The notes: generated by a model from the letters alone, not told the origin. A stretch of 64,000 nucleotides of DNA from Myxococcota bacterium (GCA_040260805.1 JBDQPD010000001.1:4802-68801); one strand, 5' to 3'. Positions 2,247 to 52,003 are shown, numbered from the stretch's first letter. Made by a program: numbers and translations.

Positions 2247-2249
2247 GCG

Positions 2250-3581: not shown

Positions 3582-4270
3582 AAGCCTGGTTATTGGTTGC
3601 CGTCGCCGCGCCGGTCTTGGTAGCGGCTCCTTTTGCGTTGCCTATTCTAGCGCAGGATCAAGCAGCGGCTCAGGGTCAAGCGGAGGCGAAAGCCGAAAAA
3701 ACGGACAAGAAAAGCACGGAAACCCCCGAAGAAGCAGCGACCGCAAAAGAAGAAGCAGAGCTCGCTTCTGAACGAAGAAAAAGAGCGATTATCAATGAGG
3801 TAGTGCGGTGCCCTAAGCGCCCCACAGAGAACCAATTTAGGACCTACAACCTATTTAACGATCAGATGCTCAAGCTCAAGCAGCGGCGCGCGCGGCAAGA
3901 AGCTGCAGAGCGTCGACTCACCGACTTGCAAAGGCAGATTCTCGCCAACCGAGAAGAATTACTAAAACTTCAGCGGCTTCTTGACGAAAAACTGACTGAT
4001 AAGGAGGTCAAGGAAGCTGAAGCGCGTGCGGAGCGCATCCGCAAACTGGTTAAGATCCTTGAGGTGATGCAGCCAGCAGCCGGGGCAAAAACAGCAACAG
4101 GTATTACCATGGAACTTTTGGTGGAACTGTTGCTGCGTATGAAACCCAAAAAGGCAGCCGCTATTCTCAACTTGGTGCCAGGCCCTTTAGCTTCTCGAAC
4201 CTTCGAAGAGGTAAGCAACCGGAAGAAGGGCTTGATCGAAGCGCTTCTCGAACGAGTCGGGGGACCGTAA
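3578..4270 (+). CDS. Flagellar-operon protein with predicted signal peptide, Lys/Glu coiled coil and MgtE-N/FliG-like helical C-terminus (YlxF/MotE-like). It sits where fliJ would be expected.
   Basis: N-term MKAWLLVAVAAPVLVAAPFALPILAQ looks like a signal peptide. C-term ELLVELLLRMKPKKAAAILNLVPGPLASRTFEEV resembles an MgtE_N-type helical repeat. Overlaps the fliI stop. Confidence 0.35.
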   Translation: MKAWLLVAVAAPVLVAAPFALPILAQDQAAAQGQAEAKAEKTDKKSTETPEEAATAKEEAELASERRKRAIINEVVRCPKRPTENQFRTYNLFNDQMLKLKQRRARQEAAERRLTDLQRQILANREELLKLQRLLDEKLTDKEVKEAEARAERIRKLVKILEVMQPAAGAKTATGITMELLVELLLRMKPKKAAAILNLVPGPLASRTFEEVSNRKKGLIEALLERVGGP

Positions 4271-5367: not shown

Positions 5368-5368
5368 T

Positions 5369-6034
5369 ATGCCGATTTCAGCGAGTCAGACCGATTTTCT
5401 TTTGCAGCCTGGTAACCGCCCACAAGATGTGGCGAAAAAGGACCTCGACCGTGAGGCGTTCCTAAAGTTGCTGGTGGCGCAGCTCAAACATCAAGATCCG
5501 CTCGAGCCGATGGAAGATGTCCAGTTCATCTCTCAGCTCACGCAGTTCTCGAATCTTGAGCAGGTGATGAAGACCAACACGAAACTCGATGAGTTATCGA
5601 TCGCTGCTGGCGCTGAGATTTCGAGCCAAGCGGTCAATATGGTCGGTCGTACAGTGGTCGTTCCTGGTGATCGCTTGACGCTGCCCGAAGAGGGTGAGGT
5701 TGAACTCAAGATTGAGGTGCCGACGACGATCGCTGGTGGTGAGGTTGCGGTGTTTAGCGAAGAGGGCCGTTTGGTCCGACGCATCCCGCTTAATCCTTCC
5801 AACGTGGGTCGCGGCTCGGCTATGTGGGATGGTCGCGATGAGCAAGGCGTTCGTATGCCGCCAGGCGAATATACAGTGCGCGCAACCGGCGTGACCCCGT
5901 CAGGGTCAGAAATTCAGATGGGTGTGCTTGCGCCTGCGCGGGTTGACGCAGTGGTCTGGCAAGAGGGGGTACCGATGCTGCGCATGGCTGATCGGCTGGT
6001 TCCTTTGTCTTCGGTGCGCGAGGTTTGGGAATAG
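5369..6034 (+). CDS. flgD: Flagellar hook capping/assembly protein FlgD
   Basis: N-term DREAFLKLLVAQLKHQDPLEPMEDVQFISQLTQFSNLEQ is the FlgD signature. C-terminal Ig-like domain. Confidence 0.85.
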   Translation: MPISASQTDFLLQPGNRPQDVAKKDLDREAFLKLLVAQLKHQDPLEPMEDVQFISQLTQFSNLEQVMKTNTKLDELSIAAGAEISSQAVNMVGRTVVVPGDRLTLPEEGEVELKIEVPTTIAGGEVAVFSEEGRLVRRIPLNPSNVGRGSAMWDGRDEQGVRMPPGEYTVRATGVTPSGSEIQMGVLAPARVDAVVWQEGVPMLRMADRLVPLSSVREVWE

Positions 6035-6181
6035 CCGAACCGCTCGAACCGGCACCACGATAACTATGCGGGCTCGTTTGGTTAGCGAGTTCGTCATTTT
6101 TTTGGCTCATCTCCTCGATAAAATAGCGATATTTCCGATAAATAAAGCGCTTAATGCTAAACTTGAACAGCGCTCGACCCG

Positions 6182-6613
6182 TTGTCTGAATCGGTCCCAT
6201 TTTGGAGCATTGATCGTTTGGACTCGCTTCGGTTGATTCAGCCACCTCAACGCGTCGAACCTAGATCAGGTGAACCGAGGGTTCATGGGCGCGCTGGCGT
6301 AGGATCAGCATTCTCCGAGGTGCTTGCGCGCGCCGTGGCGCGCCGTGAGCCTGTTCATGTGGGCGCCGAAGTTCGCGATCGCTTGCAGCAAAACGGTGTC
6401 GAATGGACCCCTGAACTCCAAGGACAGCTTGGCGAGGTGATGGGGCGCTTTGTTCAGCGTGGAAACAGCCGCGGTTTGGTCATGCACGATGAGCGTGCGT
6501 TCGTGCTTTCAGTCCCTGAGCGCGAGCTTGTGGATGTGGTGAGTGCGCGGGACCTAGGGACCGCTGTAGTGGATGGAATTGACGCTTTTGCCTTGGTGGC
6601 GAGAGAATTTTAG
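6182..6613 (+). CDS. Hypothetical protein encoded between flgD and flgE (candidate small conserved flagellar-operon protein)
   Basis: 143-aa ORF with no recognisable motif. Location inside the flagellar operon. Its stop lies 10 nt before the flgE start. Confidence 0.3.
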   Translation: MSESVPFWSIDRLDSLRLIQPPQRVEPRSGEPRVHGRAGVGSAFSEVLARAVARREPVHVGAEVRDRLQQNGVEWTPELQGQLGEVMGRFVQRGNSRGLVMHDERAFVLSVPERELVDVVSARDLGTAVVDGIDAFALVAREF

Positions 6614-6623
6614 GAGGGCGTTT

Positions 6624-7907
6624 ATGTCCCTGTTTAGTACTTTGTATATCGGCGTTTCGGGCATGTCTACGAACGGATCAGGCATTGAGATCGCTGGTGA
6701 CAATATCGCCAACGTGAACACCGTTGGGTTTAAGCGCACGCGCGCAAACTTTGGTGACGTCATCAAGGAGTCTCTTGAGTCGTCGGGGTCGTCGTCCGGC
6801 ATCGGCTCGGGTTCAGTCTTGCTCGGCGTTTCGCGAATGTACGCTCAGGGTGCCATGGTGGGCACAGGAAACAATCTCGACCTCGCCATCTCCGGCGAAG
6901 GCTTCTTTGTGGTCAACGCCAACGCTGGCATCGATGACGTGACTCTGGCTTACACGCGCGCTGGGCAGTTCAGCATCGACAAGGATGGATTCATTGTTAA
7001 TGAATCCAACTATCGCCTCCAGGGGCATATCGCCGATGCGGACGGGAACCTCACGCGTACCGTCTCGGACCTGAAGATCGCCCTTGAGAACATTCAGCCC
7101 AAGGCGACCAGTGACATCGCCTTGAAAATGAACCTCGATAACCGGGTCCCGATCAACGCCAACTTTGACCCCAACGACGCCGACACCACCAGTGACTACA
7201 CCGCCACCGTGACCATCTATGATTCAGTCGGTAAAGCCTACGATGCGCGAGTGTACTTCGAGCACGTCAACCCAGTGGCGCCCGCCGCCGACAGTTGGGA
7301 TGTGCACGTCATGGTTGGGAACAATGAAGTACTGACCCACCAGCTCGGTTTTGATAACACCGGCGCGCTCGTGGTGTCGAACCGTGCCGGCGGTAACTGG
7401 AACCCTGACGCCCCCGCCGCGCAGAATGTTGCGCTCACCTTTGACCCCGGCTTGCTGCGCAACCCGCCGGTGACGTCAGGCCTTGAAGGTATCACGTCAT
7501 TCGCAAGCCCATCGACGGTGCTGAGCCAAAGCCAGGACGGTTTTGCGGCGGGCTCTTTGGTCGGCATCGACATCGACAAACAGGGAGTGATGAACGCTCG
7601 TTATTCCAACGGTCGAACCTTTCAGAGCGGCCGCGTGATCTTGGCGAAGTTCAATTCGAAAGACGGATTGCGTCGCGTCGGAGATAATCTCTACCGGCAA
7701 ACTCAAGAGTCGGGCCCTGCAGCGCTCGCCGAAGCCGCCACCGGTGGTCGCGGTGTGGTGCACCAGGCGACGCTTGAGCAAAGCAACGTCGATATCTCTG
7801 AGGAGTTTATCGATATGATTCGATTCCAGCGTGCGTTCCAGGCGAACTCACGCACCGTGACGACGACCGATGAATTGTTGGTCGAAGTGGTCAATCTGAA
7901 GCGCTAA
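6624..7907 (+). CDS. flgE: Flagellar hook protein FlgE
   Basis: Start chosen at ATG 6624 (MSLFSTLYIGVSGMSTNGSGIEIAGDNIANVNTVGFKR = Flg_bb_rod N-domain), with AGGAGG-like RBS upstream. C-term DELLVEVVNLKR is a flagellar-rod C-terminal heptad. Confidence 0.85.
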   Translation: MSLFSTLYIGVSGMSTNGSGIEIAGDNIANVNTVGFKRTRANFGDVIKESLESSGSSSGIGSGSVLLGVSRMYAQGAMVGTGNNLDLAISGEGFFVVNANAGIDDVTLAYTRAGQFSIDKDGFIVNESNYRLQGHIADADGNLTRTVSDLKIALENIQPKATSDIALKMNLDNRVPINANFDPNDADTTSDYTATVTIYDSVGKAYDARVYFEHVNPVAPAADSWDVHVMVGNNEVLTHQLGFDNTGALVVSNRAGGNWNPDAPAAQNVALTFDPGLLRNPPVTSGLEGITSFASPSTVLSQSQDGFAAGSLVGIDIDKQGVMNARYSNGRTFQSGRVILAKFNSKDGLRRVGDNLYRQTQESGPAALAEAATGGRGVVHQATLEQSNVDISEEFIDMIRFQRAFQANSRTVTTTDELLVEVVNLKR

Positions 7908-8802
7908 TCGCTGAGCTAGTCGCTAACTTTAGTGCAGTTTCGAAGGCGATGCGGGTGCTCCCCGGATCGCCTTCGTTGTTTTTAGCCAAGTCGTACCCGG
8001 TGCCATGGTCTGGGCTGGTGCGTACAAAAGGTAAACCGAGCGATATTTGGCAGGCGCGGTTGGCGGTTAAGGCTTTGAAGGGCGCAAGACCTTGGTCGTG
8101 ATAAAGCGCGAGGATGGCTTCTGCGTCGTCCCAGCGAGCGAACAGCCCATCGGCGGGTACAAAGCCTCGGCAAGGGATACCGTCGTCCTGAACAGCGCTC
8201 AGCGCACAAGCCCAACCAAGCTCTTCTACTCCGAGCATCCCTTCTTCACCTGCGTGGGGGTTCAACCCGCACACTGCGATGGGCTTACCGCTCGCTTGAT
8301 GCAGAGCTTGAGCAGCATAGCGCAAGCGTTCGGGAGTAATAGCCTGGGGAACTTGGTGCAGTGCGATATGATCGGTCACCAGACCAACCCAGCGCTCGCC
8401 CGAGCGAAAGCTCATCACAAGTTCCGATTGCGGGTAGCGGGCGCGAAAAAGTTCGGTATGCCCGGCGTGGTCCATCCCTGCGGATCTAAGCTGCGCCTTG
8501 TTCACCGGTAGGGTCACCAGCGCGTCGGCGGCGCCTTGGTCCATGACGTCCAGAGCTTGAAGCAGGGCATCGGCTTGAATCTGCGCACCTACCTGGCAGG
8601 GGACTCCGGGCTCTGTCTGACCGTCTTGGGTACCAATTAGTCGCCGATTAGAGCGCTCTATGATGCCCAGGTCGCGCCAGAGCTGAGGCGGCCCGGTCAG
8701 CAGCGTAGTCCAAGCCTTCGCTGGAGCTGAGTTCAACACCTCTACAGCCAGTCTGGGGCCAAGGCCTGAGGGGTCCCCGCAGCTGACGACGATCGTGGTC
8801 AT
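7891..8802 (-). CDS. pdxA: 4-hydroxythreonine-4-phosphate dehydrogenase PdxA
   Basis: 303 aa. N-term IVVSCGDPSGLGP. HAGHTELF and DHGTGYDLA metal/NAD-site motifs. Classic surA-pdxA linkage. Confidence 0.9.
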   Translation of the reverse strand: MTTIVVSCGDPSGLGPRLAVEVLNSAPAKAWTTLLTGPPQLWRDLGIIERSNRRLIGTQDGQTEPGVPCQVGAQIQADALLQALDVMDQGAADALVTLPVNKAQLRSAGMDHAGHTELFRARYPQSELVMSFRSGERWVGLVTDHIALHQVPQAITPERLRYAAQALHQASGKPIAVCGLNPHAGEEGMLGVEELGWACALSAVQDDGIPCRGFVPADGLFARWDDAEAILALYHDQGLAPFKALTANRACQISLGLPFVRTSPDHGTGYDLAKNNEGDPGSTRIAFETALKLATSSAISASD

Positions 8803-9678
8803 TTAGGGGAGCAGTTTGACCAGCGCTCGCTGACGCGCTTGGCGCAGGGTCTCCGCTAACGCTTTACGCGCATTTTGCTGACGAAGGCTGTTGCGGAGTT
8901 GCTCGCGTTGGGCGTCGTTTTCAACTTCTCGGCGAATGGCCACGATGTGGATCAGATGGATCCCAAAAGCCGAACGGACGGGACCGACAACGGCACCTTC
9001 TTGTCCAGCAAAAGCGCTCTTTTCAAAAGCTGGGTCGGTGAGGCCTCGGCCGATCCAGCCCAGATCTCCGCCATTACCCGCGCTTGGGTCTTCGCTGTTC
9101 GTCTTGGCGAGCTCTGCAAAGGTTTCACCTGACCCCAGTCGGGTCTTGAGCGCCTCTGCGCGACCTCGCGCATCGTCGACTTCCCAGTCCTTGGCGTTGG
9201 GCTCTAACCGCAGCAAGAGATGGCTGAGTCTTCGTTGTTCGACCAGTTTAGGTTGCCTCGCCATCGCTTGTTTGAGCTCGCGGTCAGTGACTTGCGTGCC
9301 GCGCGCCATGATCGCTCCCATGATTTGACGTTCAATCAATTGCTCTTTGAGTTCGGTTCGATATTGCTGCCAGCTGCGTCCGCTTGCCTGAACGGCTTGC
9401 ATCAAGGTCGCAAGATCAGGAATTTTATTACGGGTTCTGATCTGCTCAACCGCTTGATCCAAAGCGGCCTCATCGACCTCAATACCGCGGCGTTTCGCCT
9501 CGGCGAGTAAGAGGCGTTTTTCGATCAATTGTTCGATCGCCGCTTGGGTGTCGCGACTCGCTCCGAGCTCGGATGCTAGGATCGGCTGCCCATCGACCAC
9601 GGCTACAATTCGGTCAACCAGCAACTCGGAGCCCGGCAAAGCAAGGCTGATGATCAGTGGAACAATCGGAAGGATCAC
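8803..9678 (-). CDS. SurA-like periplasmic chaperone/parvulin-type peptidyl-prolyl isomerase, paralog 3 of 3
   Basis: Single parvulin domain (GGDLGWIGRGLTDPAFEKSAF...GIHLIHIV) after a SurA-N-like helical region. Hydrophobic N-terminus. Adjacent to pdxA. Confidence 0.7.
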   Translation of the reverse strand: MILPIVPLIISLALPGSELLVDRIVAVVDGQPILASELGASRDTQAAIEQLIEKRLLLAEAKRRGIEVDEAALDQAVEQIRTRNKIPDLATLMQAVQASGRSWQQYRTELKEQLIERQIMGAIMARGTQVTDRELKQAMARQPKLVEQRRLSHLLLRLEPNAKDWEVDDARGRAEALKTRLGSGETFAELAKTNSEDPSAGNGGDLGWIGRGLTDPAFEKSAFAGQEGAVVGPVRSAFGIHLIHIVAIRREVENDAQREQLRNSLRQQNARKALAETLRQARQRALVKLLP

Positions 9679-10589
9679 GGCGTCTCCATGGCGCTACTCA
9701 GCGTCCGCTCAAGGGCTGCTAGCGCGCCCGGCACCTTGCGAATCTTCGCGGCGCCGCGCAAGCGTGCGATCAACTGACCTTGTAAAGCGCCCTCGCGCGT
9801 TCTGAGGATGTCTCGCTGTGCTCGGTCATCCGTTGGCTTGCCTTCGGCTTCTCGGCGCTCGAGCCTGAGGACGTGCCATCCGTGCTCACTGCGCAGCGGC
9901 TCGCTGACCTCACCCAACTTTAGGCTGAAGGCTTGGTCAAAAACAGGGGGGAGCTCGCCTCGGCTAAATGCCGGCAAAATACCGCCTTGGTCGGCTTCGG
10001 GGGCGCTGCTGAAACGGCGCACCAGATCGGCAAATGAAAACCGCTTTTTGCGGAACAAGCCGAGCGCTTCAGTCGCTTCGCTTTTGCTCGCCGTGAGCAG
10101 ATGCCGTACCACCACCTTTTCTTCGGTAGGGTGTTTGGCGACCCACGCATCGATGGCTTCACGAGAGATCGGCTGGCTAGCTGCTTCTTTGCCGAGCAGC
10201 AGCTCGGCGAGCATGCGCAATTGAACGCGCTGCTTTAGATCCGTATCCTGAAGCGCTAAGCGGTCTAAAGTGCGCCGGAAGCGGTGGCTTGGATAGCGAC
10301 GCTGAAGGGCAGCAAGCGCACGAGTTAGCGCATCTTCAGAGGGGCTAATTCCCTGCTTCTGAGCCTCTTCGGCCAGCAACCTCAAATCAATCTCATCTTC
10401 GAGCAAGCGCTCAAGAATGGGCAACCAGTCGGTTGGTGTGAGCTCCCCATATTGCCGCAATGCGCGCAGCATCAGGGCGTGACCCTCGATCGGTTGGTCC
10501 CCAAGATAAGCGATGACCTTAGGCGCAGCTGCAGGGCCTGCCGGCTCGCAGCCGGCAAAGGCGATCAGGCTGAGCAGGACGAGGCGCAC
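9675..10589 (-). CDS. SurA-like parvulin-type peptidyl-prolyl isomerase, paralog 2
   Basis: Lipoprotein-like N-term (LIAFAGCEP). Parvulin motif GGILPAFSRGELPPVFDQAFSL...HGWHVLRLE. 4-nt overlap with the downstream paralog. Confidence 0.7.
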   Translation of the reverse strand: MRLVLLSLIAFAGCEPAGPAAAPKVIAYLGDQPIEGHALMLRALRQYGELTPTDWLPILERLLEDEIDLRLLAEEAQKQGISPSEDALTRALAALQRRYPSHRFRRTLDRLALQDTDLKQRVQLRMLAELLLGKEAASQPISREAIDAWVAKHPTEEKVVVRHLLTASKSEATEALGLFRKKRFSFADLVRRFSSAPEADQGGILPAFSRGELPPVFDQAFSLKLGEVSEPLRSEHGWHVLRLERREAEGKPTDDRAQRDILRTREGALQGQLIARLRGAAKIRKVPGALAALERTLSSAMETP

Positions 10590-10592
10590 GTT

Positions 10593-11762
10593 TTATTTAG
10601 TGGGTTTGACCACTCCCTTACCGGGGGTGATCGTGACCGACTTCTTGCCGTGCGAGTGACCGTTTTGACCGTTGACCTGCCCCGAATGACCCTTTTTGCC
10701 GTGCGAGTGGCCGAAGTGACCAGCGCCTGGAGGACGAATCCCAGCAGGAGGGGGAGCTTTGCCAGCCTTGGGTTTAGCGATTTTGATCGACTCCAAAGCT
10801 GCGTCGTCAAGTTTGTACTCGGTTTTAGCGCGCAGCTCTTCGAGGAAGCTCTTCATCGTGTCGCGACGTTGCTTGCGATAGATCCGGTGACGGATCTGCT
10901 CTTTGACGTCCTTGAAGTCCTGCGAGTGAGCATGGCGTCGTCCGGTCAGCCGGAAGATATGCCAACCCTCTTTGCCTTCAACGATATCGGTCATCGTGTT
11001 GATCTTAGGTAGGTTCCAAACCGCTTTAGCTAGCGCATCGCCAAAGCGCTCCTGGAGCTGTGGTTCGGTCAGGTAGCGCAAGTCGCCACCGATCGCCTTG
11101 GTGCTGTCATCGTCGCTCGCTTCGGCGGCTTGCTTACGAAACAGGCCGCGGTCCTTTTTGAGGCCGGCTTTGAGCGCTGCTTGAACTTTCTGCAGCTCTT
11201 TTTTCGCCACCTCTTTTTTGCCTAAGAACTTCTTGTAGATGTGGCTGATCCGAACAGCTCCTGGCTTATGATAATCGTCATAGTGGTCATCATAATACTT
11301 CTTGGCTTGGACCTCATCGATGGCGTCAAAGTTCGTACGCTCCTCGACGGTTCGGCGGCTCAGCTCCTGCGCTAAAGCGCTCTGGAGCGTATCAAGGACC
11401 TTCTCATCTTTGTGCAGATTGAGTCGGATCGCCTCTTGAGCGAGCAACGCTTTGTCCATCAGGTGCTCGACATACTCTTGGCGACGCTCTTTGCTCTGGT
11501 AGCGAGCGCGCACGAAGGGCGTCATACCGTTGATCTTCTTCTCCATCGCCTCGACCGTGAGACGTTGGTCACCGATGGTGGCTAAGGTTTTGCCCTCTGC
11601 GTTCTCGCTTGCGAACAAGTCGCACGATTCACCTGAAGCGGGCGCAGCAGCCGGCTGAGGCTGACAGCCGCCTAAGGCGACGGCGCATAATAAGAGATAG
11701 CGGTTCATGAGCACTCCGTAGTCGAATAGTTGGCGGCGCAGCGGTAGCAGCGCCGGTGCCAT
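10593..11762 (-). CDS. SurA-like parvulin-type peptidyl-prolyl isomerase, paralog 1, with C-terminal His/Gly/Lys-rich tail
   Basis: Lipoprotein-like N-term (LGGCQPQ). Parvulin motif GGDLRYLTEPQL...GWHIFRL. C-terminal tail HFGHSHGKKGHSGQVNGQNGHSHGKK. Confidence 0.7.
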   Translation of the reverse strand: MAPALLPLRRQLFDYGVLMNRYLLLCAVALGGCQPQPAAAPASGESCDLFASENAEGKTLATIGDQRLTVEAMEKKINGMTPFVRARYQSKERRQEYVEHLMDKALLAQEAIRLNLHKDEKVLDTLQSALAQELSRRTVEERTNFDAIDEVQAKKYYDDHYDDYHKPGAVRISHIYKKFLGKKEVAKKELQKVQAALKAGLKKDRGLFRKQAAEASDDDSTKAIGGDLRYLTEPQLQERFGDALAKAVWNLPKINTMTDIVEGKEGWHIFRLTGRRHAHSQDFKDVKEQIRHRIYRKQRRDTMKSFLEELRAKTEYKLDDAALESIKIAKPKAGKAPPPAGIRPPGAGHFGHSHGKKGHSGQVNGQNGHSHGKKSVTITPGKGVVKPTK

Positions 11763-16172: not shown

Positions 16173-16242
16173 GGTGTGAACTCTCCCTTCTCCCGTGGGA
16201 CAAAGTGGCACGAATTGAGCGATCAAGCGAAAGAGGGGTCCT

Positions 16243-16839
16243 TTGGAACTGTTTCCAATTAGCTTGGTTTTGGGGTCTGCGCTCTTAGGCTCGGTGCCCT
16301 TTGGGTTTGTACTGGCCAAGTACTTTCTAGGTGTTGATCTCAAAGCGGTGGGTTCTGGTAACATCGGAGCCACCAACGCTTCTCGTGCCGGTGGTATTCG
16401 CTTTGGCGCAACCATTTTACTGCTCGACGCCCTCAAGGGCTTTATCGGCCCTTTTGTCGTTCAGGCGATGGGTTTGCCTGATTTTTGGATCGCAGCAGCG
16501 GGTTTAGCGGCCGTGATTGGCCATTGCTATACTCCTTTTCTTCGATTCAGCGGGGGGAAGGGTGTCGCCACTGGACTGGGTGTTATTATCGCCTTTGAGC
16601 CTTGGCTCGGAGGGGTTGGGGTTGCGGTTTATGCTGTTGTATTAGCTGTTTTTCGCACCAGCGCTATCGGCAGCCTGGTCGCCACAGCGAATTGTGTTGC
16701 GATCGCTTGGATGGTCCCTAGTTTTTCAGATCGTCCGGGTGTTCGGGTCGCATTAGCTGTGATCTGTGTCTTGATCGTTTGGCGACATCGCAGCAACCTA
16801 GCAGCCATTCGCCAACAATCTGTTGATGGGCCTGCATGA
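16243..16839 (+). CDS. plsY: Glycerol-3-phosphate acyltransferase PlsY
   Basis: LGSVPFGFVLAKYF...GSGNIGATNASRAGG is the PlsY signature. Multi-TM protein. Confidence 0.9.
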   Translation: MELFPISLVLGSALLGSVPFGFVLAKYFLGVDLKAVGSGNIGATNASRAGGIRFGATILLLDALKGFIGPFVVQAMGLPDFWIAAAGLAAVIGHCYTPFLRFSGGKGVATGLGVIIAFEPWLGGVGVAVYAVVLAVFRTSAIGSLVATANCVAIAWMVPSFSDRPGVRVALAVICVLIVWRHRSNLAAIRQQSVDGPA

Positions 16840-17768
16840 GCGACGACGACTTTAGCGATGAGACACGCATCCTGACCACGTCCGAATTCCGTTTGGATGA
16901 ACTGGTCGGTGCAGCGGGCGAGCGCAGCGCGGTGTTGACCGTGCTCCGGGGCAGGCGGCGCGGCGCAACTTTTCAGATCGGTAGCAGCGTGACGGTGCTT
17001 GGGCGCGGTGAGCGTTCGGATGTACGCCTTGATGATGATGGCGTAAGCCGTCGCCACGCCGAGTTGGTGCGCCTCGATGATGGGGCGGTTCAGATTCGAG
17101 ATCTGGGAAGCACCAACGGCACCTTCGTGAACGGCGAGCGGGTCGCCGAGCGGGTGCTTGAGGATGATGACCGAGTCGCCCTAGGAACCACTACCCTGCT
17201 CAAGTTTGAGTTGCATGATGCGATGGAGATCAAGCTCAAAGCTGAGATGTATCAAAAGGCGACACGCGACCAGCTCACCGGGATGTTCAATCGTCGGTAC
17301 TGCTTTGATCGCCTGCGTGAAGAGTTTAGCTTTGCGCAGCGCCATGGCCAGCCGCTCGCTGTGGTCATGTTCGATGTGGATCACTTCAAGCAAGTGAACG
17401 ACACTTACGGTCATGCAGCCGGTGACGCCGTGCTGCAGCGCATTGGCAAAGTCGTCATGGAACTGGTCCGCAACGAGGACGTTGTGTGTCGTTATGGTGG
17501 TGAAGAGTTTGTCTGTATTTTGCGCGGCTTGACCTTAGACCAAGGTGAGCTCTTTGCAGACCGAGTGCGTCGATCCATTGAGTCGCAAACGGTGATCAGC
17601 GCCGAGCACCAACTCCAAGTGACAGTTTCGCTCGGTGTGGCGAGCCTAGACGGCGTGAATTTCACAAGCCCTGAAGAGCTGGTGAACGAGGCGGATGCTT
17701 ATCTTTATGTGGCGAAAGAGGGCGGCCGCAATCAGGTCGCCTCGGCGCTTACTGCGACCACCGAATAA
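16836..17768 (+). CDS. FHA domain-containing diguanylate cyclase (FHA-GGDEF)
   Basis: FHA: TFQIGSSVTVLGRGERSDVRLDDDGVSRRHAEL...STNGTFVNGERV. GGDEF: RYGGEEFV with upstream DxxHFKQVND. 4-nt overlaps with plsY and a direct abutment with dnaE. Confidence 0.85.
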   Translation: MSDDDFSDETRILTTSEFRLDELVGAAGERSAVLTVLRGRRRGATFQIGSSVTVLGRGERSDVRLDDDGVSRRHAELVRLDDGAVQIRDLGSTNGTFVNGERVAERVLEDDDRVALGTTTLLKFELHDAMEIKLKAEMYQKATRDQLTGMFNRRYCFDRLREEFSFAQRHGQPLAVVMFDVDHFKQVNDTYGHAAGDAVLQRIGKVVMELVRNEDVVCRYGGEEFVCILRGLTLDQGELFADRVRRSIESQTVISAEHQLQVTVSLGVASLDGVNFTSPEELVNEADAYLYVAKEGGRNQVASALTATTE

Positions 17769-20700
17769 ATGGGTTTCGCGCACCTTAACGTCAAAACTGG
17801 ATTTTCGTTTTTAGAGGGCGCTGTTCCGCTGGAACAGCTGTGCGAACGGGTTAAAGATCTCGGCATGGAATCGGTTGCGGTGACCGATAAAGGAAACCTT
17901 CACGGCGCCTACGAATTTTATAAATCAGCGAAGAAGGCAGGCATTAACCCTGTCCTTGGTTGTGAGCTGCAGCTCTTGCCCGAGGGGATTGCGATCGATG
18001 ACCGCAGCACCCGACACGACACCTATGCGATCACGTTACTCGCCGCTAACGACACCGGCTGGCGAAACCTCAAAGAGCTGGTCTCGAAGGCTTCTTTGCT
18101 CGGTTATTATTATGTGCCGCGTATCGACTGGCTTACGCTCAAAGAGCACTCTGAGGGATTGATCGCTTTATCGGGCGGCTTAGGTGGTCTGGTCTCACGA
18201 ACGTGGCACGGGTGGCACGGACCGCGCTCGAAGCGTCGAGCATCGAAAAATCGATATCCTGATGAAGCGGGTCAAGCGGTAAAGAAGCTGTCGAGCCTCT
18301 TTAGCCCAGGCGATTTCTATCTAGAGTTCCAAGATACTGGATTGCCCGAAGAGCCTGAGTTCAATGAGTTTTTGTGGGGCCTCAAGGAGCAGCTCGCGCT
18401 CCCTGGTGTAGCGACTAATAATTGCCACTATCTCGATCAAGATGACGCTGAGGCGCACCGCTATTTGATGTGCATTCAGTATCGAACCACGATCGATAAA
18501 TTCGACGGACCTGAGATTACGGGTCGGTACCTGAAAGATGAGCAAGCGATGGCTTCCGGGTGGTTCGCTGAGCACCCCGAGCTGGTTCAGGCCTCCCTTG
18601 AGATCGCTAACCGCTGCTCGGTGACGATGGAGCTCGGCGTCAACTATCTGCCCCCCTTCCCATGCGCTGACGGTCGCAACGAAGAAGAAGAGCTAAGGCA
18701 CAGCGCCCGCCAAGGTCTCAGCAAAAGGTTTGAAGAGCTCAAAGCGACGGGCGCCTACACCTTCGACGAAAACACCTATCACGAGCGGCTCGACCATGAA
18801 CTTGGGATCATTGAGTCGATGGGGTTCCCCGGTTATTTTCTGATCGTTCAAGACTTCATCAACTGGGCTAAGGACCACGGAATTCGCGTCGGGCCGGGGC
18901 GCGGCTCTGGTGCTGGCTCGCTGGTGGCTTGGGCGCTGAGAATTACTGATTTAGACCCCTTGCCTTATGATCTCCTGTTTGAGCGATTTCTCAATCCCGA
19001 GCGCGTCTCGATGCCTGACTTTGATGTCGACTTTTGCCAAGAACGACGAGGCGAGGTGATCCAGTATGTGACCGAGAAGTACGGCTCGGATCGTGTCGGT
19101 CAGATCGCAACCTTCGCGCGCTTGGGCGGTAAGTCGGTGATCAAAGATGTGGCGTCAGTCCTCGATATGCCCTTCGCTGAAATCAACGATATGACGAGGA
19201 ATATCCCGGCGTTTCATGAGGGGTTACCGGTGACCCTGACGCCGAAGATGCGCAGCGTAGAAGGGGTCAGTATTGTTGATGGTCGCCTCGTCGGCGAGGC
19301 CGGAGCCGTGTCGGACGCTCGCAAATCATGGGGTTTGTTCGAGGTGTCTAGTGAGCTGCTTGAGCAGCTCCAGGCTGGCGGTAAACTCAAGAAAGTCTTT
19401 GATATAGCGACTCGCCTTGAGGGGCTTTACCGTCAGGCGGGCACGCACGCGGGTGGGGTGCTGATCGGTCGTGAGGTGTTGACCGAGTATACCCCGGTGT
19501 TTTCGACCTCAAGCGGCGGTCAGGCGGCGCAATTTAACATGGAAGGCGTTGAGGACGTCGGCTTGGTTAAGTTTGATTTCCTCGGGCTAAAAAATCTCGA
19601 CATCATCACCTACGCCGAAGATTTAGTGAACGAAGAGGTCCAGCAAGCCAATCAAGGAACCCAAGAGGACCGGGCAGCCTTGATTGAGCGGTTTCCGCAT
19701 CTGCGCGGTCTAGACCCGAGCAAGCCGCTTGATCTTCTGGATGTAGACCTGGTTCCTTTAGATCACCTCGAGCCCTACCAGTTGATCTCTTCGGGAGACA
19801 CTAACGGCGTCTTCCAGCTCGAGTCCGACGGTATGAAATCGATGCTGGTGGAGCTTAAGCCCGATTGTTTTGAGGACATTGTGGCGGCTGTAGCCTTGTA
19901 TCGCCCTGGGCCGATGGATCAGATCCCCGATTATATTAAGCGCAAGCATGGGCAGCTCGCCATTGAGTATCCCCACACTGCGCTCGCCGAAGTGCTCAAG
20001 CCCACCTACGGTCACATGGTGTATCAAGAGCAGGTGATGCAAGCCGCTCAAATCATGGGAGGTTACACGCTTGGCGGCGCTGATATCTTGCGCCGCGCCA
20101 TGGGTAAAAAGAAGCGCGAAGAGATGGAAAAGCAGCGCCTGATCTTTACCAAAGGCGCTCTTGAAATCCATGAGCTACCTGGCGCTAAAGCGGGCAAAAT
20201 CTTTGACGTCATGGAGAAGTTTGCTGGGTACGGGTTCAACAAGAGCCATGCGGCTGCATATGCCAAAATCGCGTATCAAACCGCCTATCTAAAGCAGTTC
20301 CACCCGGTCGCATTTTATTGCGCTCAGGTGACCGTTCATCACAACACGACCGAAACCGTGACCAAGTACCTGCGTGAAGCGAGCGATAAGGGCATCAAAA
20401 TCCTACCGCCTTGCGTCAACGCTTCTGCCTACGGATTTAGGCCCGAAGGTGAGCAAGCCATTCGCTTTGGCTTATGCGCAGTCAAGGGCGTCGGTGACGC
20501 GGTTTTGAACCGGTTGTTTTCGGAGCAAGATAAAACGAAACCTTTCATCGGCTTGCTTGAGCTCGTTGAGCGCTGCGGACCGCGTGAGCTGCCGCGCAAA
20601 GCTACTGAGTTGTTGGTCGATGCTGGTGCTTTGGATTTCTGCGGCGCGTCGCGGCGTCGTTTGGTGAGCAGTTTAGAGACGGTGTATCAGCGAGCCGGCA

Positions 20701-21530
20701 ACACCTGCTCTGATCGCGAGGCGGGCCAGTTTAGCTTCTTTGAGATGGGCGCAATGGATGGGGGCACAGCCTCGGACCCGGACGAGTGCTTGATTGAAGA
20801 GCGCCTCGAATGGCCAGATCGCCTGCGCCTGGCTCGAGAGCGAGCCGTGCTCGGCTTCTTCCTTTCGGGGCATCCAACGACCATATACCAAAAGGCATTT
20901 AAGCGCTTAACGACCTGTCGTTGTTCTGATCTAGCCACCCTTTGGGAGCCTGAGAAGGGCTGGGGAAACAAGCGTAAAACCGCTACACTCGCTGGGGTTA
21001 TTGTCGCGCGCGACATCAAGAATATAGCGACCTATAGTGGTGGACCCAAAGAAGACACGGTGATCCCAAGACGTGCGTTCATTACCATCGAAGACACCTC
21101 TGGTCAGGTTGAGATACGTCTTGAGCCAGAAGTCTTTGGTCAATTCGAAGAGTTGATCAAATCTGATGAACCCTTGGTCTTTTCGGGCAACCTGATGGCG
21201 CGCAAGTCAGGCGGCGGAGATGATGGCGAGGAGCAGCTGCAAGTTGGCCTCCGGGTCAACCAGGTCCACCGCGCCTTCGAGGTCTTTGAACAACAGCGGA
21301 TCCCCTTCGTTTTGAGGCTCGATTTAGAGCGTCACACTCCGGACGATATTGAGGGCCTAAAAGCGCTGTGCCGACGCTTCCCTGGGAGCATGCCGCCAGA
21401 GTTTAGGATTCGTGGTAACCACGGCCGTCTGCGCCTGCTCGCCGCCCATGAATTGAGCGTCGCCTGCCACCTCGAGTTGATGGATGAAGTCGAAGAGTTG
21501 CTGGGCAAAGGGTCTGTGCAGCTCGGCTGA
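17769..21530 (+). CDS. dnaE: DNA polymerase III alpha subunit DnaE
   Basis: 1253 aa. PHP domain N-term (FAHLNVKTGFSFLEGA), Pol III alpha core and OB-fold region. Confidence 0.95.
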   Translation: MGFAHLNVKTGFSFLEGAVPLEQLCERVKDLGMESVAVTDKGNLHGAYEFYKSAKKAGINPVLGCELQLLPEGIAIDDRSTRHDTYAITLLAANDTGWRNLKELVSKASLLGYYYVPRIDWLTLKEHSEGLIALSGGLGGLVSRTWHGWHGPRSKRRASKNRYPDEAGQAVKKLSSLFSPGDFYLEFQDTGLPEEPEFNEFLWGLKEQLALPGVATNNCHYLDQDDAEAHRYLMCIQYRTTIDKFDGPEITGRYLKDEQAMASGWFAEHPELVQASLEIANRCSVTMELGVNYLPPFPCADGRNEEEELRHSARQGLSKRFEELKATGAYTFDENTYHERLDHELGIIESMGFPGYFLIVQDFINWAKDHGIRVGPGRGSGAGSLVAWALRITDLDPLPYDLLFERFLNPERVSMPDFDVDFCQERRGEVIQYVTEKYGSDRVGQIATFARLGGKSVIKDVASVLDMPFAEINDMTRNIPAFHEGLPVTLTPKMRSVEGVSIVDGRLVGEAGAVSDARKSWGLFEVSSELLEQLQAGGKLKKVFDIATRLEGLYRQAGTHAGGVLIGREVLTEYTPVFSTSSGGQAAQFNMEGVEDVGLVKFDFLGLKNLDIITYAEDLVNEEVQQANQGTQEDRAALIERFPHLRGLDPSKPLDLLDVDLVPLDHLEPYQLISSGDTNGVFQLESDGMKSMLVELKPDCFEDIVAAVALYRPGPMDQIPDYIKRKHGQLAIEYPHTALAEVLKPTYGHMVYQEQVMQAAQIMGGYTLGGADILRRAMGKKKREEMEKQRLIFTKGALEIHELPGAKAGKIFDVMEKFAGYGFNKSHAAAYAKIAYQTAYLKQFHPVAFYCAQVTVHHNTTETVTKYLREASDKGIKILPPCVNASAYGFRPEGEQAIRFGLCAVKGVGDAVLNRLFSEQDKTKPFIGLLELVERCGPRELPRKATELLVDAGALDFCGASRRRLVSSLETVYQRAGNTCSDREAGQFSFFEMGAMDGGTASDPDECLIEERLEWPDRLRLARERAVLGFFLSGHPTTIYQKAFKRLTTCRCSDLATLWEPEKGWGNKRKTATLAGVIVARDIKNIATYSGGPKEDTVIPRRAFITIEDTSGQVEIRLEPEVFGQFEELIKSDEPLVFSGNLMARKSGGGDDGEEQLQVGLRVNQVHRAFEVFEQQRIPFVLRLDLERHTPDDIEGLKALCRRFPGSMPPEFRIRGNHGRLRLLAAHELSVACHLELMDEVEELLGKGSVQLG

Positions 21531-21587
21531 TCAAAGCCGTTCCGAAAAACCGATGCTGAGCCCCTGCGCGTCCGGTGGACGCGTGCT

Positions 21588-24500
21588 ATGGTTCGCTTGC
21601 GAGGACCGATGCGTTATCTTTCAGCGCTGCTCATCTTAGCGGTGGGTTGCCTTCCAGCGATGCCTGATCAGCCGACACTTGATGTCGGGGTTGTCGTGGT
21701 CGCACCCGATGCAGGTCGAACCACGGCGCCTCCTCCACCTCCCCCTGATGCGGGCCCTCGAGATATTGGCTTTGGTGAGCTCAGTGTGATTGGGCTAACG
21801 CCGGACAAGGGCCCGTCGACGGGCGGAACAAGAGTTCAGCTGCGCGGCGAAGGGTTTTTACCCGACACCGTGGTCGAGCTTGGAGGGCTTGCGGTTCGCG
21901 ATGTCTTAGTGGTGTCGTCTCGAGCTCTGACCTTTTTTACCCCAGCGGCAGCGCCTGGGGCGGCCGACTTGAGAGTTCAAAACTCGTTCGGAACGGCCGT
22001 ACTAAGCAACGCATTCACCTACTTCCAGCCTCTGCAGCCTCGGCAAATTGATCCCTCAGAAGGACCGCTCGAGGGGGGTGTTGAGATCCGGCTAACCGGC
22101 GAGGGGTTGTCGGTTGATACGGTCGCTTTGATCGGTGGTCAGCCCTTGTTGCGACCGCGCATGGAGGGCGATGATCTTCTCGGGACCTTACCCGCTGGCG
22201 CAGCACCGGGCGTGGTCGATGTGCGCATCGCTGATGGTTTTGGTCAGGTGCACTGGCGCTCTGGGTTTCGCTATTTGCCGCGCCCTTACCTCGAGCGAAT
22301 CGAGCCGAACCAAGCAGCGCCGAATCAAGAACAAGCGCTTCGTCTGCTGGGCGGCGGGCTCTGCGATGAGCCCGAGGTGCGCGTGGGCGGCGCTCAATGC
22401 CAAGACGTAGAGCGCACCACGCAGGGTCTGACCTGTTCGATGACGACGCCAGCGCAGGAGGCAGCCTACGCCGTTCGGGTCATCTGTCCGGGCGGCTCCG
22501 CTGAACTGGTGCCGGGCTTGGTGGTCGTTGCCGACCAAGGCCCCCCCGTATTGCTCGCAGTAGTCCCTGACCATGGCCCTTTATCAGGCGGTAATTCGGT
22601 GACCTTGATCGGCCGTGATTTAAGCGTCGATGATGTGTCTTGGGACGGACAAGCGATCGCCGTGCTTGAGCGGGTTGACAACGGCCTCTTGGTCCAGGCG
22701 CCGGCTCGGCAAGCGGCCGGCTCGGTGTCGGTAGCGGCGGGCGCAGGCGGCACGTTAGAAAATGCCTACAGCTATCGCGACTTGATGATGCTCCGAGGTG
22801 TGGAGCCGGTTCAGGGGCCAGCGACCGGGGGTACCACCGTGACCCTCTTTGGTCAGGGCTTTTGCGCCGAACCTGAGGTCCGCTTTGACGGCATTGAACA
22901 AGAGATACTCGAGGTTGATGGTCGCCAGATTCGCTTGCGCACCGCTGAACATCCTGGGGGCAGGGCAAGCATCGCAGTGGTCTGCCCGGAGCAGACGGCG
23001 AGCCGACATCGAGGGTTCTTGTTTGAGGCGGCCTTGGAGTTTGTCGGGCTCAGCCCAAACCGCGGCGCTTTAGCAGGGGGAACCGAGGTCTACCTGGTCG
23101 GTCAAGGCTTCGCTCGCTCGGGATTGGGCCTGACGCTGGGTGGTCAGCTGTTCTCTGATGTAACCGTCCTCTCGGATGCGCTCGTTCGGGCTCAGACTCC
23201 GCCGGGACAAAGCTTAGGCGCAGTCGATTTGCGTTTGAGTTTAGGTCAAGAGCAAATCGTCGCTCCAAGCGCCTTTACCTATTATGATCCTGGTTTTCGT
23301 TATGGCGGGAGCCGGGGCGGGACCCCTCAAGGTTCGATTAACGTGACGGTGCTCAACTCTTGGGGCCAGCTGGCGCCGGTTGAGGGAGCGCAAGTGGTCG
23401 TAGGCGGCAGCCAGGATGATCAGCGCTTGGTGGCGGTGACCGACGCTCGCGGCCAAGCCACGCTCAGCGACCCAAGCCTGTTTGGTCCCCAGACGGTCAC
23501 GGTCTACAAAGAGGGCTGCGACCGGGCGCGTAGCTTGGTCGACGTTGACGCTGCTGATCTGACCTTTTGGATTGGTTGCATGGGGCCGCCGAGCGAGGGC
23601 GGAGGGGGTGGCACGCCGCCGCCAGCGCCTCAGCCCTTGATTATTTCGGGACGAATTCTCGGCTTCGATAAGGCGCTTTTTGATCCGGGTCGTCTCGGTC
23701 CAAACCAAAGAGCGTTCGCTCAGGTTCATCTAACCCAAAGCTCTCCTTATGGTGGCGGAACATGGGCTAACGGACGGGACTTTGTCTTTGAAGATGGTGG
23801 AGAATACCGGCTGGTTTTAGCCTCGGGTCGTTACACACTGGTCGCAGTCGCTGGGATTCATGACAGCCGGACTCAGCAGGTGAGCGAGCTGACGCAGCTT
23901 GGCTTTAGGCGTCAGGTCAGCGGTCCGCCGGGTGAGCGGTTAGTCGATCAAGACATTGTGCTCAACTATCCCATGGACGCCACCTATGGCGTGAGCCTGG
24001 GTGATCGTCCTGCGCCGCTTCCGTCGTTACCCGGGGCTGACCGGATGAGGGTTCGTGTTGCGCTCGACTTTGGCGGTGAGGGGTATTTCCCCTTAGCCGA
24101 CGAGATGTCTCGGGGGACTTTTATCCTCCTGCGTGGCTTGCCACGGGTTCAGGCTGATATGCTGTATGTGAGCGGTGGTTTGGTCAGCGGTGAGGGTGGC
24201 TATTCACCATCGTCAACGATCCGAACCCGGGGCAGCGGTCGCTTAGAGGGGGGCATCACGCTTGGGCCGTTATTGCCCCTAGCGGAGCGCTTAGCGCCAC
24301 GAAGCGACGGTGGACTTTTGCACGATCGGACGCTGCGGTGGAAGTTCGGGACCGGACCGATTCAGCCTGATTATGTTCGAGTCGATATCGCCGACACGAA
24401 CGGCAACAACTGGGAGTTGATGTTGCGCGGCGGACAAAATAAACTTCGCTTGCCCAACCTACCCAATAGCGAGGTCGGCTTAGGTCGCCCTGGGGTGTAT

Positions 24501-24623
24501 TTCGCTCAGATCACAGCGGTCGCTAACCCGCGGTTTGACTTCGACAACTTCAGCTATCTCGATACCTGGTTCATGAGCTGGCAAGCTCTGAGTGAACGAG
24601 CTGTTTCCTTCCGGCTCGACTAG
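21588..24623 (+). CDS. Large secreted/lipo-protein with multiple IPT/TIG (Ig-like) repeats and a ~400-aa uncharacterised C-terminal region
   Basis: Lipoprotein-like N-term (LILAVGCLP). Repeated ~85-aa units with GPxTGGTxVxLxGxGF and CPxxxxxEV patterns. Pro-rich linkers. Confidence 0.5.
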   Translation: MVRLRGPMRYLSALLILAVGCLPAMPDQPTLDVGVVVVAPDAGRTTAPPPPPPDAGPRDIGFGELSVIGLTPDKGPSTGGTRVQLRGEGFLPDTVVELGGLAVRDVLVVSSRALTFFTPAAAPGAADLRVQNSFGTAVLSNAFTYFQPLQPRQIDPSEGPLEGGVEIRLTGEGLSVDTVALIGGQPLLRPRMEGDDLLGTLPAGAAPGVVDVRIADGFGQVHWRSGFRYLPRPYLERIEPNQAAPNQEQALRLLGGGLCDEPEVRVGGAQCQDVERTTQGLTCSMTTPAQEAAYAVRVICPGGSAELVPGLVVVADQGPPVLLAVVPDHGPLSGGNSVTLIGRDLSVDDVSWDGQAIAVLERVDNGLLVQAPARQAAGSVSVAAGAGGTLENAYSYRDLMMLRGVEPVQGPATGGTTVTLFGQGFCAEPEVRFDGIEQEILEVDGRQIRLRTAEHPGGRASIAVVCPEQTASRHRGFLFEAALEFVGLSPNRGALAGGTEVYLVGQGFARSGLGLTLGGQLFSDVTVLSDALVRAQTPPGQSLGAVDLRLSLGQEQIVAPSAFTYYDPGFRYGGSRGGTPQGSINVTVLNSWGQLAPVEGAQVVVGGSQDDQRLVAVTDARGQATLSDPSLFGPQTVTVYKEGCDRARSLVDVDAADLTFWIGCMGPPSEGGGGGTPPPAPQPLIISGRILGFDKALFDPGRLGPNQRAFAQVHLTQSSPYGGGTWANGRDFVFEDGGEYRLVLASGRYTLVAVAGIHDSRTQQVSELTQLGFRRQVSGPPGERLVDQDIVLNYPMDATYGVSLGDRPAPLPSLPGADRMRVRVALDFGGEGYFPLADEMSRGTFILLRGLPRVQADMLYVSGGLVSGEGGYSPSSTIRTRGSGRLEGGITLGPLLPLAERLAPRSDGGLLHDRTLRWKFGTGPIQPDYVRVDIADTNGNNWELMLRGGQNKLRLPNLPNSEVGLGRPGVYFAQITAVANPRFDFDNFSYLDTWFMSWQALSERAVSFRLD

Positions 24624-24627: not shown

Positions 24628-25581
24628 TTACTCGACCGAATCGATCCGACTCTGCGCGAGTTCGATGTAGGCCTCGTCGAGTTCAAACCCGAGATAATCA
24701 CGCTCGCTAGCCTTAGCCGCTAGCCCGGTGGTCCCTGCGCCAAAGAAGGGGTCAAGGACCAGGTCACCTCGGTAGGTGTACAGCTCGATCAGTCGCTGTG
24801 GCAGCGCCACCGGAAAAGGCGCAGGATGACCCACGCGTTTGGCGCTTTCGGGCGCAATATCCCACACATCGAGGGTTGCGGCCATGAACTCTTCTTTAGA
24901 GATCGTGTCTTCAAAGGGTAGCCCCAGTTGCTCACGCTTCTTGCGAGATAATGCCCGGTCAAAGCGTCCCTTTGAGGCGATCACAACGCGCTCGGTCACG
25001 TCTCGTAACACCGGGTTAGCGGCGCTCTTGAAGGAGCCCCAAGCGCATGACCCCGAGGCGCCAGCAGCCTTTCGCCACAGGACCTCTCCGCGCAACAACA
25101 AGCCGAGCTCGTCTTGTAAAATACGTGTCACATCGGCGCTTAGGCTGCGGTAGGGCTTGCGTCCTAAATTGGCTATATTGACCGCTATTCGCCCCCCCGG
25201 CTCGAGCACCCTGGCGCATTCGGCGAAGACGTCTCGCAGTAACTTTAAGTAGGCGAGATAGGTGGCGGGTACAGCGCCTTCTCCAAGCGCCATTTCATAT
25301 TCTTTACCGACAAAATAAGGCGGCGAGGTGACGACTAGAGCCACCGAGTTATTCGCCAACGAGCTCATGTCTCGAGCGTCGCCGTGGATGATTTCATTGC
25401 GCCGAGTTGAGCGCTCAAGGTCTTGATCATCCGAGATCGTCGGCGCCGAAAAACGGGCGTAGAAGGCCGAGGCGTCGTGCCCTTCTCTCTTGCCGGTTCC
25501 AAAGTTTTTGGTGGCCGTACTGACGCGTTTGTTTTGGGTCATCGGTGCTGTCCTGCCTGCATCATCGCTCGAGATCAACAA
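24628..25581 (-). CDS. Beta-class (motif IV before motif I) DNA methyltransferase of the N4/N6 family with an SPPY catalytic motif (m4C-like); no cognate endonuclease seen
   Basis: VVTSPPYF (motif IV) precedes DPFFGAGTTGLAA (FxGxG SAM motif I), i.e. PF01555-type order. ~317 aa. Confidence 0.8.
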   Translation of the reverse strand: MLISSDDAGRTAPMTQNKRVSTATKNFGTGKREGHDASAFYARFSAPTISDDQDLERSTRRNEIIHGDARDMSSLANNSVALVVTSPPYFVGKEYEMALGEGAVPATYLAYLKLLRDVFAECARVLEPGGRIAVNIANLGRKPYRSLSADVTRILQDELGLLLRGEVLWRKAAGASGSCAWGSFKSAANPVLRDVTERVVIASKGRFDRALSRKKREQLGLPFEDTISKEEFMAATLDVWDIAPESAKRVGHPAPFPVALPQRLIELYTYRGDLVLDPFFGAGTTGLAAKASERDYLGFELDEAYIELAQSRIDSVE

Positions 25582-50775: not shown

Positions 50776-50778
50776 ATC

Positions 50779-51929: not shown

Positions 51930-52003
51930 GCAGAACGCCTCGTTCAGCGGCGGCCCCTTGCGTCGCAGCGCCGACCGCACCACACTCCGTCTAGGAGTAC
52001 CGG

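Follow-up and report, generated by a model that had tools for sequence, protein, structure and literature searches.

A stretch of 64,000 nucleotides (nt) from the genome of a Myxococcota bacterium (GCA_040260805.1, JBDQPD010000001.1:4802-68801), called the window below, was analysed around positions 16,243 to 21,530, where three genes follow each other head to tail on the plus strand: plsY, a gene for a protein with an FHA and a GGDEF domain (dgc below) and dnaE. An initial annotation, made from the sequence alone, had described dgc as a diguanylate cyclase gene sandwiched between the other two and had taken the co-transcription of a cyclic di-GMP (c-di-GMP) synthase with the replicative polymerase and a lipid-synthesis gene as a sign of cell-cycle-linked c-di-GMP signalling. 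Positions are counted from the first letter of the window, and the features are collected in Table 1.

Table 1. Features of the plsY-dgc-dnaE locus and its immediate surroundings.
Feature	Position	Strand	Remarks
Divergent intergenic region, cytochrome-c554 lipoprotein gene / plsY	16173..16242	.	70 nt; sequence read
plsY (glycerol-3-phosphate acyltransferase)	16243..16839	+	198 amino acids (aa), TTG start
plsY/dgc ATGA junction	16836..16839	+	4-nt overlap of start codon with plsY stop
dgc (FHA-GGDEF gene, DgcB-type diguanylate cyclase)	16836..17768	+	310 aa; Pfam FHA and GGDEF
N-terminal tail motif D8-E-T10-R-I-L13 (DETRIL)	16857..16874	+	T10 codon 16863-16865
FHA domain	16992..17186	+	Pfam residues 53-117; beta-sandwich residues 31-127 in model
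Predicted linker helix	17220..17264	+	residues 129-143, AlphaFold2 (AF2) secondary structure; leads into DxLTxxxNR turn
GGDEF catalytic domain	17259..17735	+	residues 142-300
dgc/dnaE TAA-ATG junction	17766..17771	+	0-nt gap
dnaE (DNA polymerase III alpha subunit, DnaE1)	17769..21530	+	1253 aa; PHP, DNA_pol3_alpha, finger and HHH_6 domains
TIG/IPT-repeat protein gene	21588..24623	+	signal-peptide-like N-terminus; 57 nt 3' of dnaE

Organisation and packing of the locus

All three open reading frames (ORFs) were recovered at the positions given in Table 1, and the Pfam and equivalog searches confirmed the gene identities given in the initial annotation. The plsY product matched PF02660 (E=1.4e-43) and scored 149.7 bits with the PlsY equivalog TIGR00023, above the cut-off of 137.2; an identical 198-aa gene call was found in public contigs. 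The dnaE product is assigned to the replicative DnaE1 because it reached 1205.7 bits with NF004226 (cut-off 1002) and stayed below the cut-off of the error-prone DnaE2 model NF004225 (539 vs. 939 bits). Its start codon cannot be shifted downstream, since the PHP domain and the NF004226 profile match already from residues 2-5, and the start position is also kept in relatives.

Both junctions have the form that had been described initially. At the first one (GCATGAGC), the ATG at 16836 overlaps the plsY TGA at 16837-16839, and at the second (GAATAAATGGGT), the TAA at 17766-17768 is followed directly by the ATG at 17769. No Shine-Dalgarno (SD)-like sequence was found in the 25 nt preceding the dnaE ATG. 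Given this abutment and the missing SD-like sequence, translation of dnaE is probably coupled to ribosomes finishing dgc, and a coupling of the two genes by termination and reinitiation is plausible.

Neither a sigma-70 promoter nor an intrinsic terminator consensus was detected at either junction, and the overall counts of such matches in the window equalled those in shuffled sequence. The promoter scan, which covers sigma-70-type sites only, also gave no promoter-like site on the plus strand between 16243 and 17769. An independent promoter or terminator between the genes, named in the initial annotation as evidence against its proposal, was thus absent from both junctions in the consensus scan. 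Given the lack of intergenic space and of consensus signals at the junctions, a single transcription unit is likely, and the assumed co-transcription of plsY, dgc and dnaE can be retained at that strength.

The packing of the three genes is real but not exceptional, because tight junctions are typical of this genome. Possible starts lie within -8 to +3 nt of the upstream stop in up to 25 of the 43 same-strand neighbour pairs of the window, a permissive count based on a crude gene call in which the in-frame start nearest to the upstream stop was taken for each downstream ORF, so that it is an upper bound. Many of these 25 pairs show the same ATGA-type overlap. Compact operons are illustrated by a housekeeping string on the plus strand at 47113-56351, which resembles the classical proteobacterial rpoN cluster and in which most junctions overlap or abut (kdsB, pyrG, kdsA, a kdsC-like HAD hydrolase gene, an lptA-like gene, an lptB-like ABC ATPase gene, rpoN, hpf, PTS-EIIA(Ntr), hprK and rapZ).

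Upstream of plsY, the cytochrome-c554 lipoprotein gene lies on the minus strand with a likely ATG at 16172, and the promoter of the plsY-dgc-dnaE unit presumably lies in the region between the two divergent genes. It carries an SD-like AAGAGGGG 6-13 nt 5' of the plsY TTG start, and no sigma-70 consensus was found in it. A sigma-54-like element (TGGCACG-N4-GAGC, plus strand, 16206-16221) was considered and rejected as a chance-level match: it has three mismatches, the window contains 77 matches of this quality where chance would give 113, and the relative with 88% identity does not share the motif. The gene for sigma-54, rpoN, is itself encoded in the window (52004-53485). Downstream of dnaE, the TIG gene may belong to the same transcription unit. 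The spacer between them contains a perfect 7-bp GC-rich hairpin (CGCGTCC-GGT-GGACGCG, 21567-21583, plus strand), which ends 4 nt before the TIG ATG. As it lacks a T-run, it is not a canonical intrinsic terminator, and it could occlude the TIG start region.

Domains and motifs of the cyclase

The FHA domain (PF00498, E=2.4e-20) has a complete phosphothreonine (pThr) pocket formed by R57, S71, R72, H74, T93 and N94, and its columns are invariant in our homolog alignment A1 (Arg of GR, Ser-Arg of SRxH and Thr-Asn of STNG). An FHA domain with such a pocket implies input from a Ser/Thr kinase, in agreement with the phosphothreonine-dependent input that had been annotated. The GGDEF domain (PF00990, E=6e-46; TIGR00254, 177 bits against a cut-off of 37.4) carries the intact active site reported initially, G221-G-E-E-F225 (nt 17496-17510), and, five residues before it, an RxxD inhibitory site (I-site), R212-N-E-D215 (nt 17469-17480). 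Both motifs are present in 115/115 full-length homologs. The guanine-binding residues N188 and D197 lie within KQVNDTYGHAAGD.

Two other assignments of the enzyme were rejected. GGDEF proteins of the Hypr type, which produce cyclic GMP-AMP (cGAMP), are marked by Ser or Thr in place of the guanine-specifying Asp in GHxxG[D] (compare PMC9140294). In the window protein Asp197 is kept in GHAAGD and is invariant in A1, so the protein is a canonical c-di-GMP synthase by sequence and not a Hypr enzyme. A PleD-type cyclase does not fit either: the NF007135 equivalog reached 171 bits against a cut-off of 474, with the GGDEF part only and no receiver (REC) domain.

Ahead of the FHA domain, the N-terminal tail carries a Thr, T10, that is nearly invariant in A1. 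It has an acidic residue at -2 and aliphatic residues at +2 and +3 (I12 and L13), and 106 of the 115 full-length homologs have the pattern [DE]-x-T-x-[IVLMF] in their first 40 residues. T10 is therefore the predicted phospho-acceptor and self-ligand of the FHA domain. The linker helix between the domains leads into the wide turn D145-R153 (DQLTGMFNR) and may act as a signalling helix, by analogy with the activation model of DgcB. The AF2 model of the whole protein has a predicted local distance difference test (pLDDT) score of 85.4.

The middle protein is a DgcB-type diguanylate cyclase, that is, a further member of a characterised family, with its enzyme activity predicted from homology. The best sequence match in the PDB is 6HBZ (phmmer, E=9.9e-47), which covers residues 43-301 and hence both domains. 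The best Foldseek match is also full-length Bdellovibrio bacteriovorus DgcB, 6HBZ_B (E=5.3e-29, 278 columns, TM 0.52/0.59), with a root-mean-square deviation of 8.2 Å that reflects a differing domain orientation. In DgcB (Bd0742; see also Hobley et al. 2012, PMC3271064), the FHA domain represents a consensus phospho-peptide sensor, crystal structures revealed its ligand as the protein's own N-terminal tail centred on T14, and locking this tail into the cleft by a disulfide gave a constitutively active mutant; the FHA domain also binds a peptide supplied in trans, and c-di-GMP feeds back through the RxxD I-site (Meek et al. 2019, PMC6733907). The architecture, including its activation mechanism, is thus already solved for DgcB, which the initial annotation had overlooked, and uncharacterised FHA-GGDEF homologues in Myxococcus and other Myxococcota had been noted in the same work (PMC6733907, Fig. 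2b). The family is large: more than 7000 matches reach E<=1e-20, and most of them bear the labels Myxococcota, Myxococcales or Deltaproteobacteria. The top 120 homologs are nearly all FHA and GGDEF proteins of about 300 aa from Myxococcota or 'Deltaproteobacteria' metagenome-assembled genomes (MAGs), with 43-50% identity.

Genes that could provide the input or read the output of the cyclase were sought in the whole window. Among the approximately 50 ORFs scanned, there was no Pkinase, PP2C, Metallophos, PilZ, EAL or HD-GYP domain, and the window contains neither a second GGDEF or FHA gene nor a riboswitch or other Rfam family. A flagellar cluster is located at 430-7907 on the plus strand (fliG, fliH, fliI for the type III secretion system (T3SS) ATPase, a 230-aa ORF without a Pfam match, fliK, flgD and flgE). 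To our knowledge, Myxococcota are classically non-flagellated, so either the Myxococcota label is loose or the organism belongs to a flagellated deep branch. The choice between motile and sessile life would be the conventional guess for the role of a c-di-GMP synthase in a flagellated organism.

Gene order within and outside the clade

The gene order was compared in 176 fetched loci, 50 of which contain a full-length FHA-GGDEF protein: 11 in the clade of the window and 39 outside it (32-50% identity). The DnaE identities to the clade members are 99, 88, 86, 77, 63 and 56%, followed by 44% or less for all other Myxococcota, and this sharp step places the window in an isolated, sparsely sampled clade. 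Its sources are mostly marine or metagenomic, and the relatives are labelled Myxococcota or Myxococcales by their sources. The 39 other loci came from genome- and metagenome-wide scans on generic GGDEF motifs, and the results for them hold among the matches listed, where no close relatives of the window were found.

Within the clade, each of the six lineages sampled has the FHA-GGDEF gene immediately upstream of dnaE, and in five of them plsY was confirmed upstream of the pair (Table 2). The -4 overlap between plsY and dgc reads ATGA or GTGA in the relatives with 88, 69 and 56% identity. The junction between dgc and dnaE loosens with divergence (0, -4, 0, +24, +24 and +118 nt); the window, L084 and L172 lack an SD-like sequence before dnaE. 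The 118-nt spacer in the most divergent relative (L086) was examined as a possible regulatory element and rejected, as it has neither a promoter nor a terminator consensus and folds no better than shuffled sequences (z=0.54). In the JGI contig, no plsY was called in the unannotated gap of 560 nt upstream of the FHA-GGDEF gene, and the call of the latter has 354 aa, with about 44 additional N-terminal residues. Either an artefact of gene calling that swallowed plsY or a real loss of plsY could account for this.

Table 2. Spacing of the genes in the clade of the window (negative values, overlap).
Locus	Cyclase identity	plsY-dgc gap	dgc-dnaE gap	Remarks
Window and L081-L083	100%	-4 nt	0 nt	
L084	88%	-4 nt	-4 nt	
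L172, L173	69%	-4 nt	0 nt	
L174, L175	56%	-4 nt	+24 nt	SD-like AAGGA before dnaE
L085-L087	51%	+6 nt	+118 nt	TARA 'Myxococcales' MAG GCA_002722845.1
JGI 3300072015 contig			+24 nt	DnaE 63% identical; FHA-GGDEF 6912-7976, dnaE 8001-11759; gene calls only

The surrounding region of about 25 kb (flanks of about 13-25 kb) is likewise syntenic in the clade genomes. It comprises three SurA/rotamase genes, MobA-like, MoeA, SLT-LysM and cytochrome c554 genes on one side and, after the trio, the TIG gene, a hypothetical gene and genes for SLT, a periplasmic binding protein and NAD synthase. The TIG gene follows dnaE in L081, L084, L085-087 and the P0128 contig and is syntenic throughout the clade. As the whole neighbourhood is syntenic, the plsY-dgc-dnaE trio is not singled out by conservation. 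Directly after the TIG gene lies an N6/N4 DNA methyltransferase gene (PF01555, 3.2e-39; 24628-25581, minus strand), which is present in L081 and L084 and was not called at the equivalent spot of the contig with 63% DnaE identity. It looks like a lineage-specific insertion into conserved synteny, and its product like an orphan methylase, next to which no restriction partner is obvious among the gene calls.

Outside the clade the arrangement was not found. Neither plsY nor dnaE occurs near the FHA-GGDEF gene in any of the 39 loci within the available flanks (at least 1.5 kb downstream in 29 and at least 0.7 kb upstream in 33), nor was either gene seen near the other GGDEF loci, about 125 in number. 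Upstream of the nearest outgroup dnaE (L176, 43%) lies a divergent hypothetical gene, and neither plsY nor a GGDEF gene is found within 8 kb. Conservation of the gene order, which the initial annotation had proposed as a check, therefore holds for dgc and dnaE in 6/6 clade lineages, with plsY in 5/6, and fails in the 39 other loci and at the outgroup dnaE. Moreover, adjacency was seen only together with syntenic flanks of about 13-25 kb and in no case where the flanking synteny had decayed.

The contexts of the non-clade genes are heterogeneous and include asparaginase/FHA-GGDEF/Metallophos/rpsU-dnaG-rpoD, xseB/response regulator/FHA-GGDEF, a GAF histidine kinase and occasional Ser/Thr kinases. 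A Metallophos gene is a neighbour in 1/39 of these loci, a kinase in 3/39 and a response regulator in 2/39, as opposed to 0/11 in the clade; with no dominant context, a partner gene typical of the family was rejected. In L088 (8001-15234), a homolog with 50% identity is followed by a Metallophos gene and then by rpsU, yqeY, dnaG and rpoD, and its Metallophos neighbour parallels bd0740 of the Bdellovibrio dgcB operon (PMC6733907). The partly syntenic L091 has a convergent 678-aa gene directly downstream instead of the Metallophos gene, and its contig ends there. A Myxococcales MAG contig (L007, 361-2121) carries tandem FHA-GGDEF paralogs at 361-1176 and 1270-2121.

Interpretation and comparison with known systems

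The locus is best read, with a probability of about 0.75, as a compact and probably co-transcribed plsY-dgc-dnaE string with a DgcB-type cyclase, the arrangement of which is lineage-specific and has been passed down inside a long syntenic block of an isolated clade. This would be ordinary operon compaction and not a link between c-di-GMP and replication. The cell-cycle-linked signalling proposed in the initial annotation was drawn from adjacency alone, and the comparative evidence does not support it; with the arrangement confined to one isolated lineage with generally tight gene packing, there is no real evidence for such a link, which is a speculation. In a compact genome with such high synteny, tight packing beside dnaE should not by itself be taken for functional coupling.

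Several observations weigh against this reading. The adjacency of dgc and dnaE survives in every sampled clade member down to 56% DnaE identity, which is long for a neutral arrangement, so a selective advantage of co-expression is possible. Promoters inside coding sequence or of a non-sigma-70 type would escape the consensus scan. As regards the DgcB-type cyclase, AF2 leaves residues 1-25 disordered (pLDDT <50), so that docking of the tail is not independently predicted, position -3 of the tail is Ser in the window protein and hydrophobic in DgcB, and the 64 kb contain no gene for a kinase, for a phosphatase of the PP2C or calcineurin-like type or for a c-di-GMP effector.

In a functional operon, making the cyclase together with the replicative polymerase and a membrane-lipid enzyme, both in stoichiometry and in time, would tie c-di-GMP production to growth or the replication cycle, in a way resembling the oscillation of c-di-GMP in the cell cycle of Caulobacter. 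The adjacency retained in all six lineages, down to 51% identity for the cyclase, speaks for such an operon, and with stop and start abutting or overlapping in three lineages and no SD-like sequence before dnaE, translation of dnaE would depend on dgc; an unrelated homolog also lies about 2 kb upstream of rpsU-dnaG-rpoD (L088), another neighbourhood of replication genes. However, this last context is not kept in the partly syntenic relative L091 as far as its contig extends, the conservation extends over about 25 kb of the same genomes and is not specific to the trio, and the dgc-dnaE junction opens to +24 and +118 nt in the divergent members. Furthermore, neither dnaE nor plsY accompanies the non-clade FHA-GGDEF genes or the other GGDEF loci, tight junctions are the norm of the genome, gating of the protein through FHA/pThr and the I-site after translation means that co-expression alone would not time its output, and the literature searched reports no such link and no operon of a diguanylate cyclase gene with dnaE or plsY. 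We therefore regard a functional operon as unlikely. Highly unlikely is its more elaborate form, in which a cyclase captured into the dnaE operon is translationally coupled, its abundance tracks replisome synthesis and kinase-gated pulses of c-di-GMP link replication or growth state to the motile-sessile decision. If true, this capture would represent a second, independently evolved cell-cycle c-di-GMP circuit with a pThr/FHA input instead of the phospho-Asp input of the PleD type. A function of the arrangement would point to second-messenger signalling being wired directly to the replication machinery in a lineage of which little is known, and the single operon would offer a simple genetic handle for testing it. 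It is somewhat easier to envisage, though still doubtful, that dnaE owes most of its expression to a separate promoter, lying within the 3' part of the dgc ORF (in the relatives, alternatively within the spacer), and that the abutment is physical compaction without coupling. As an essential gene, dnaE should need expression independent of a signalling gene, and the spacers of 118 nt in the most divergent relative and 24 nt in two others, in L174 with an SD-like AAGGA, indicate that it can initiate independently; the restriction of the scan to sigma-70-type sites also leaves room for such a promoter. On the other hand, the scan gave no plus-strand site from the plsY start to the dnaE start, the L086 spacer shows neither a consensus for promoters or terminators nor significant structure, and the lack of SD-like sequences before dnaE in the window, L084 and L172 favours termination and reinitiation.

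By homology with DgcB, a Hanks-type Ser/Thr kinase would phosphorylate Thr10 in the cyclase's own tail, and the phosphorylated tail would dock into the FHA cleft of the same or the partner subunit. Through the linker helix, docking would bring the dimer into an arrangement with its two GGEEF sites opposite each other, in which c-di-GMP is made, and the product would then shut the enzyme off through the RxxD I-site. Alternatively, the FHA domain could read pThr on another protein in trans, which could recruit the cyclase to, e.g., the divisome or the replisome. FHA domains generally bind pThr peptides in this way, that of DgcB also accepts a peptide added in trans (PMC6733907), and the deviating position -3 and the disordered tail of the window protein would suit such a role. 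Against it, the tail Thr with its acidic -2 and aliphatic +2 positions is kept in 106 of 115 homologs including the window protein, this is the self-ligand pattern shown in DgcB, GarA and OdhI, and no candidate partner is encoded nearby, so trans-reading is considered very improbable.

The likeness to DgcB comprises the same order of tail, FHA domain, linker and GGDEF domain in a protein of similar size, with 32-34% identity over 278-281 aligned columns. The pocket residues R57, S71, R72, T93 and N94 align with R61, S75, R76, T96 and N97 of DgcB, the two proteins share the RxxD I-site, the GGEEF motif and the DxLTxxx[NS][RK] turn, and the tail D8-E-T10-R-I-L corresponds to E12-K13-T14-S15-x-V17. 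Besides position -3, they differ at +1 of the tail, which is Arg here and Ser in DgcB, and in their neighbours: dgcB is reported in an operon with the calcineurin-like phosphatase gene bd0740 (PMC6733907), whereas dgc is flanked by plsY and dnaE, with no kinase or phosphatase gene in 64 kb. DgcB of Bdellovibrio acts in prey invasion, a role that is not transferable to the window cyclase.

The textbook case of cell-cycle-linked c-di-GMP is PleD of Caulobacter. The window protein shares with it the GGDEF domain with an I-site (E=3.6e-30 to 1W25 and 2WB4); however, PleD receives its input through a REC-REC phospho-Asp receiver, whereas the window protein has FHA/pThr input and no Response_reg match. 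The FHA domain also matches GarA and OdhI (E about 1e-15), with which it shares the logic of self-tail recognition, with the pThr in an N-terminal extension. These two proteins are actinobacterial, lack an enzymatic output domain and regulate enzymes of the tricarboxylic acid (TCA) cycle by steric occlusion. The comparison thus lies closest to DgcB, and the mechanism described for it, in which a phosphorylated tail of the protein itself gates a GGDEF enzyme, would extend to a large family, in which thousands of homologs have this tail motif.

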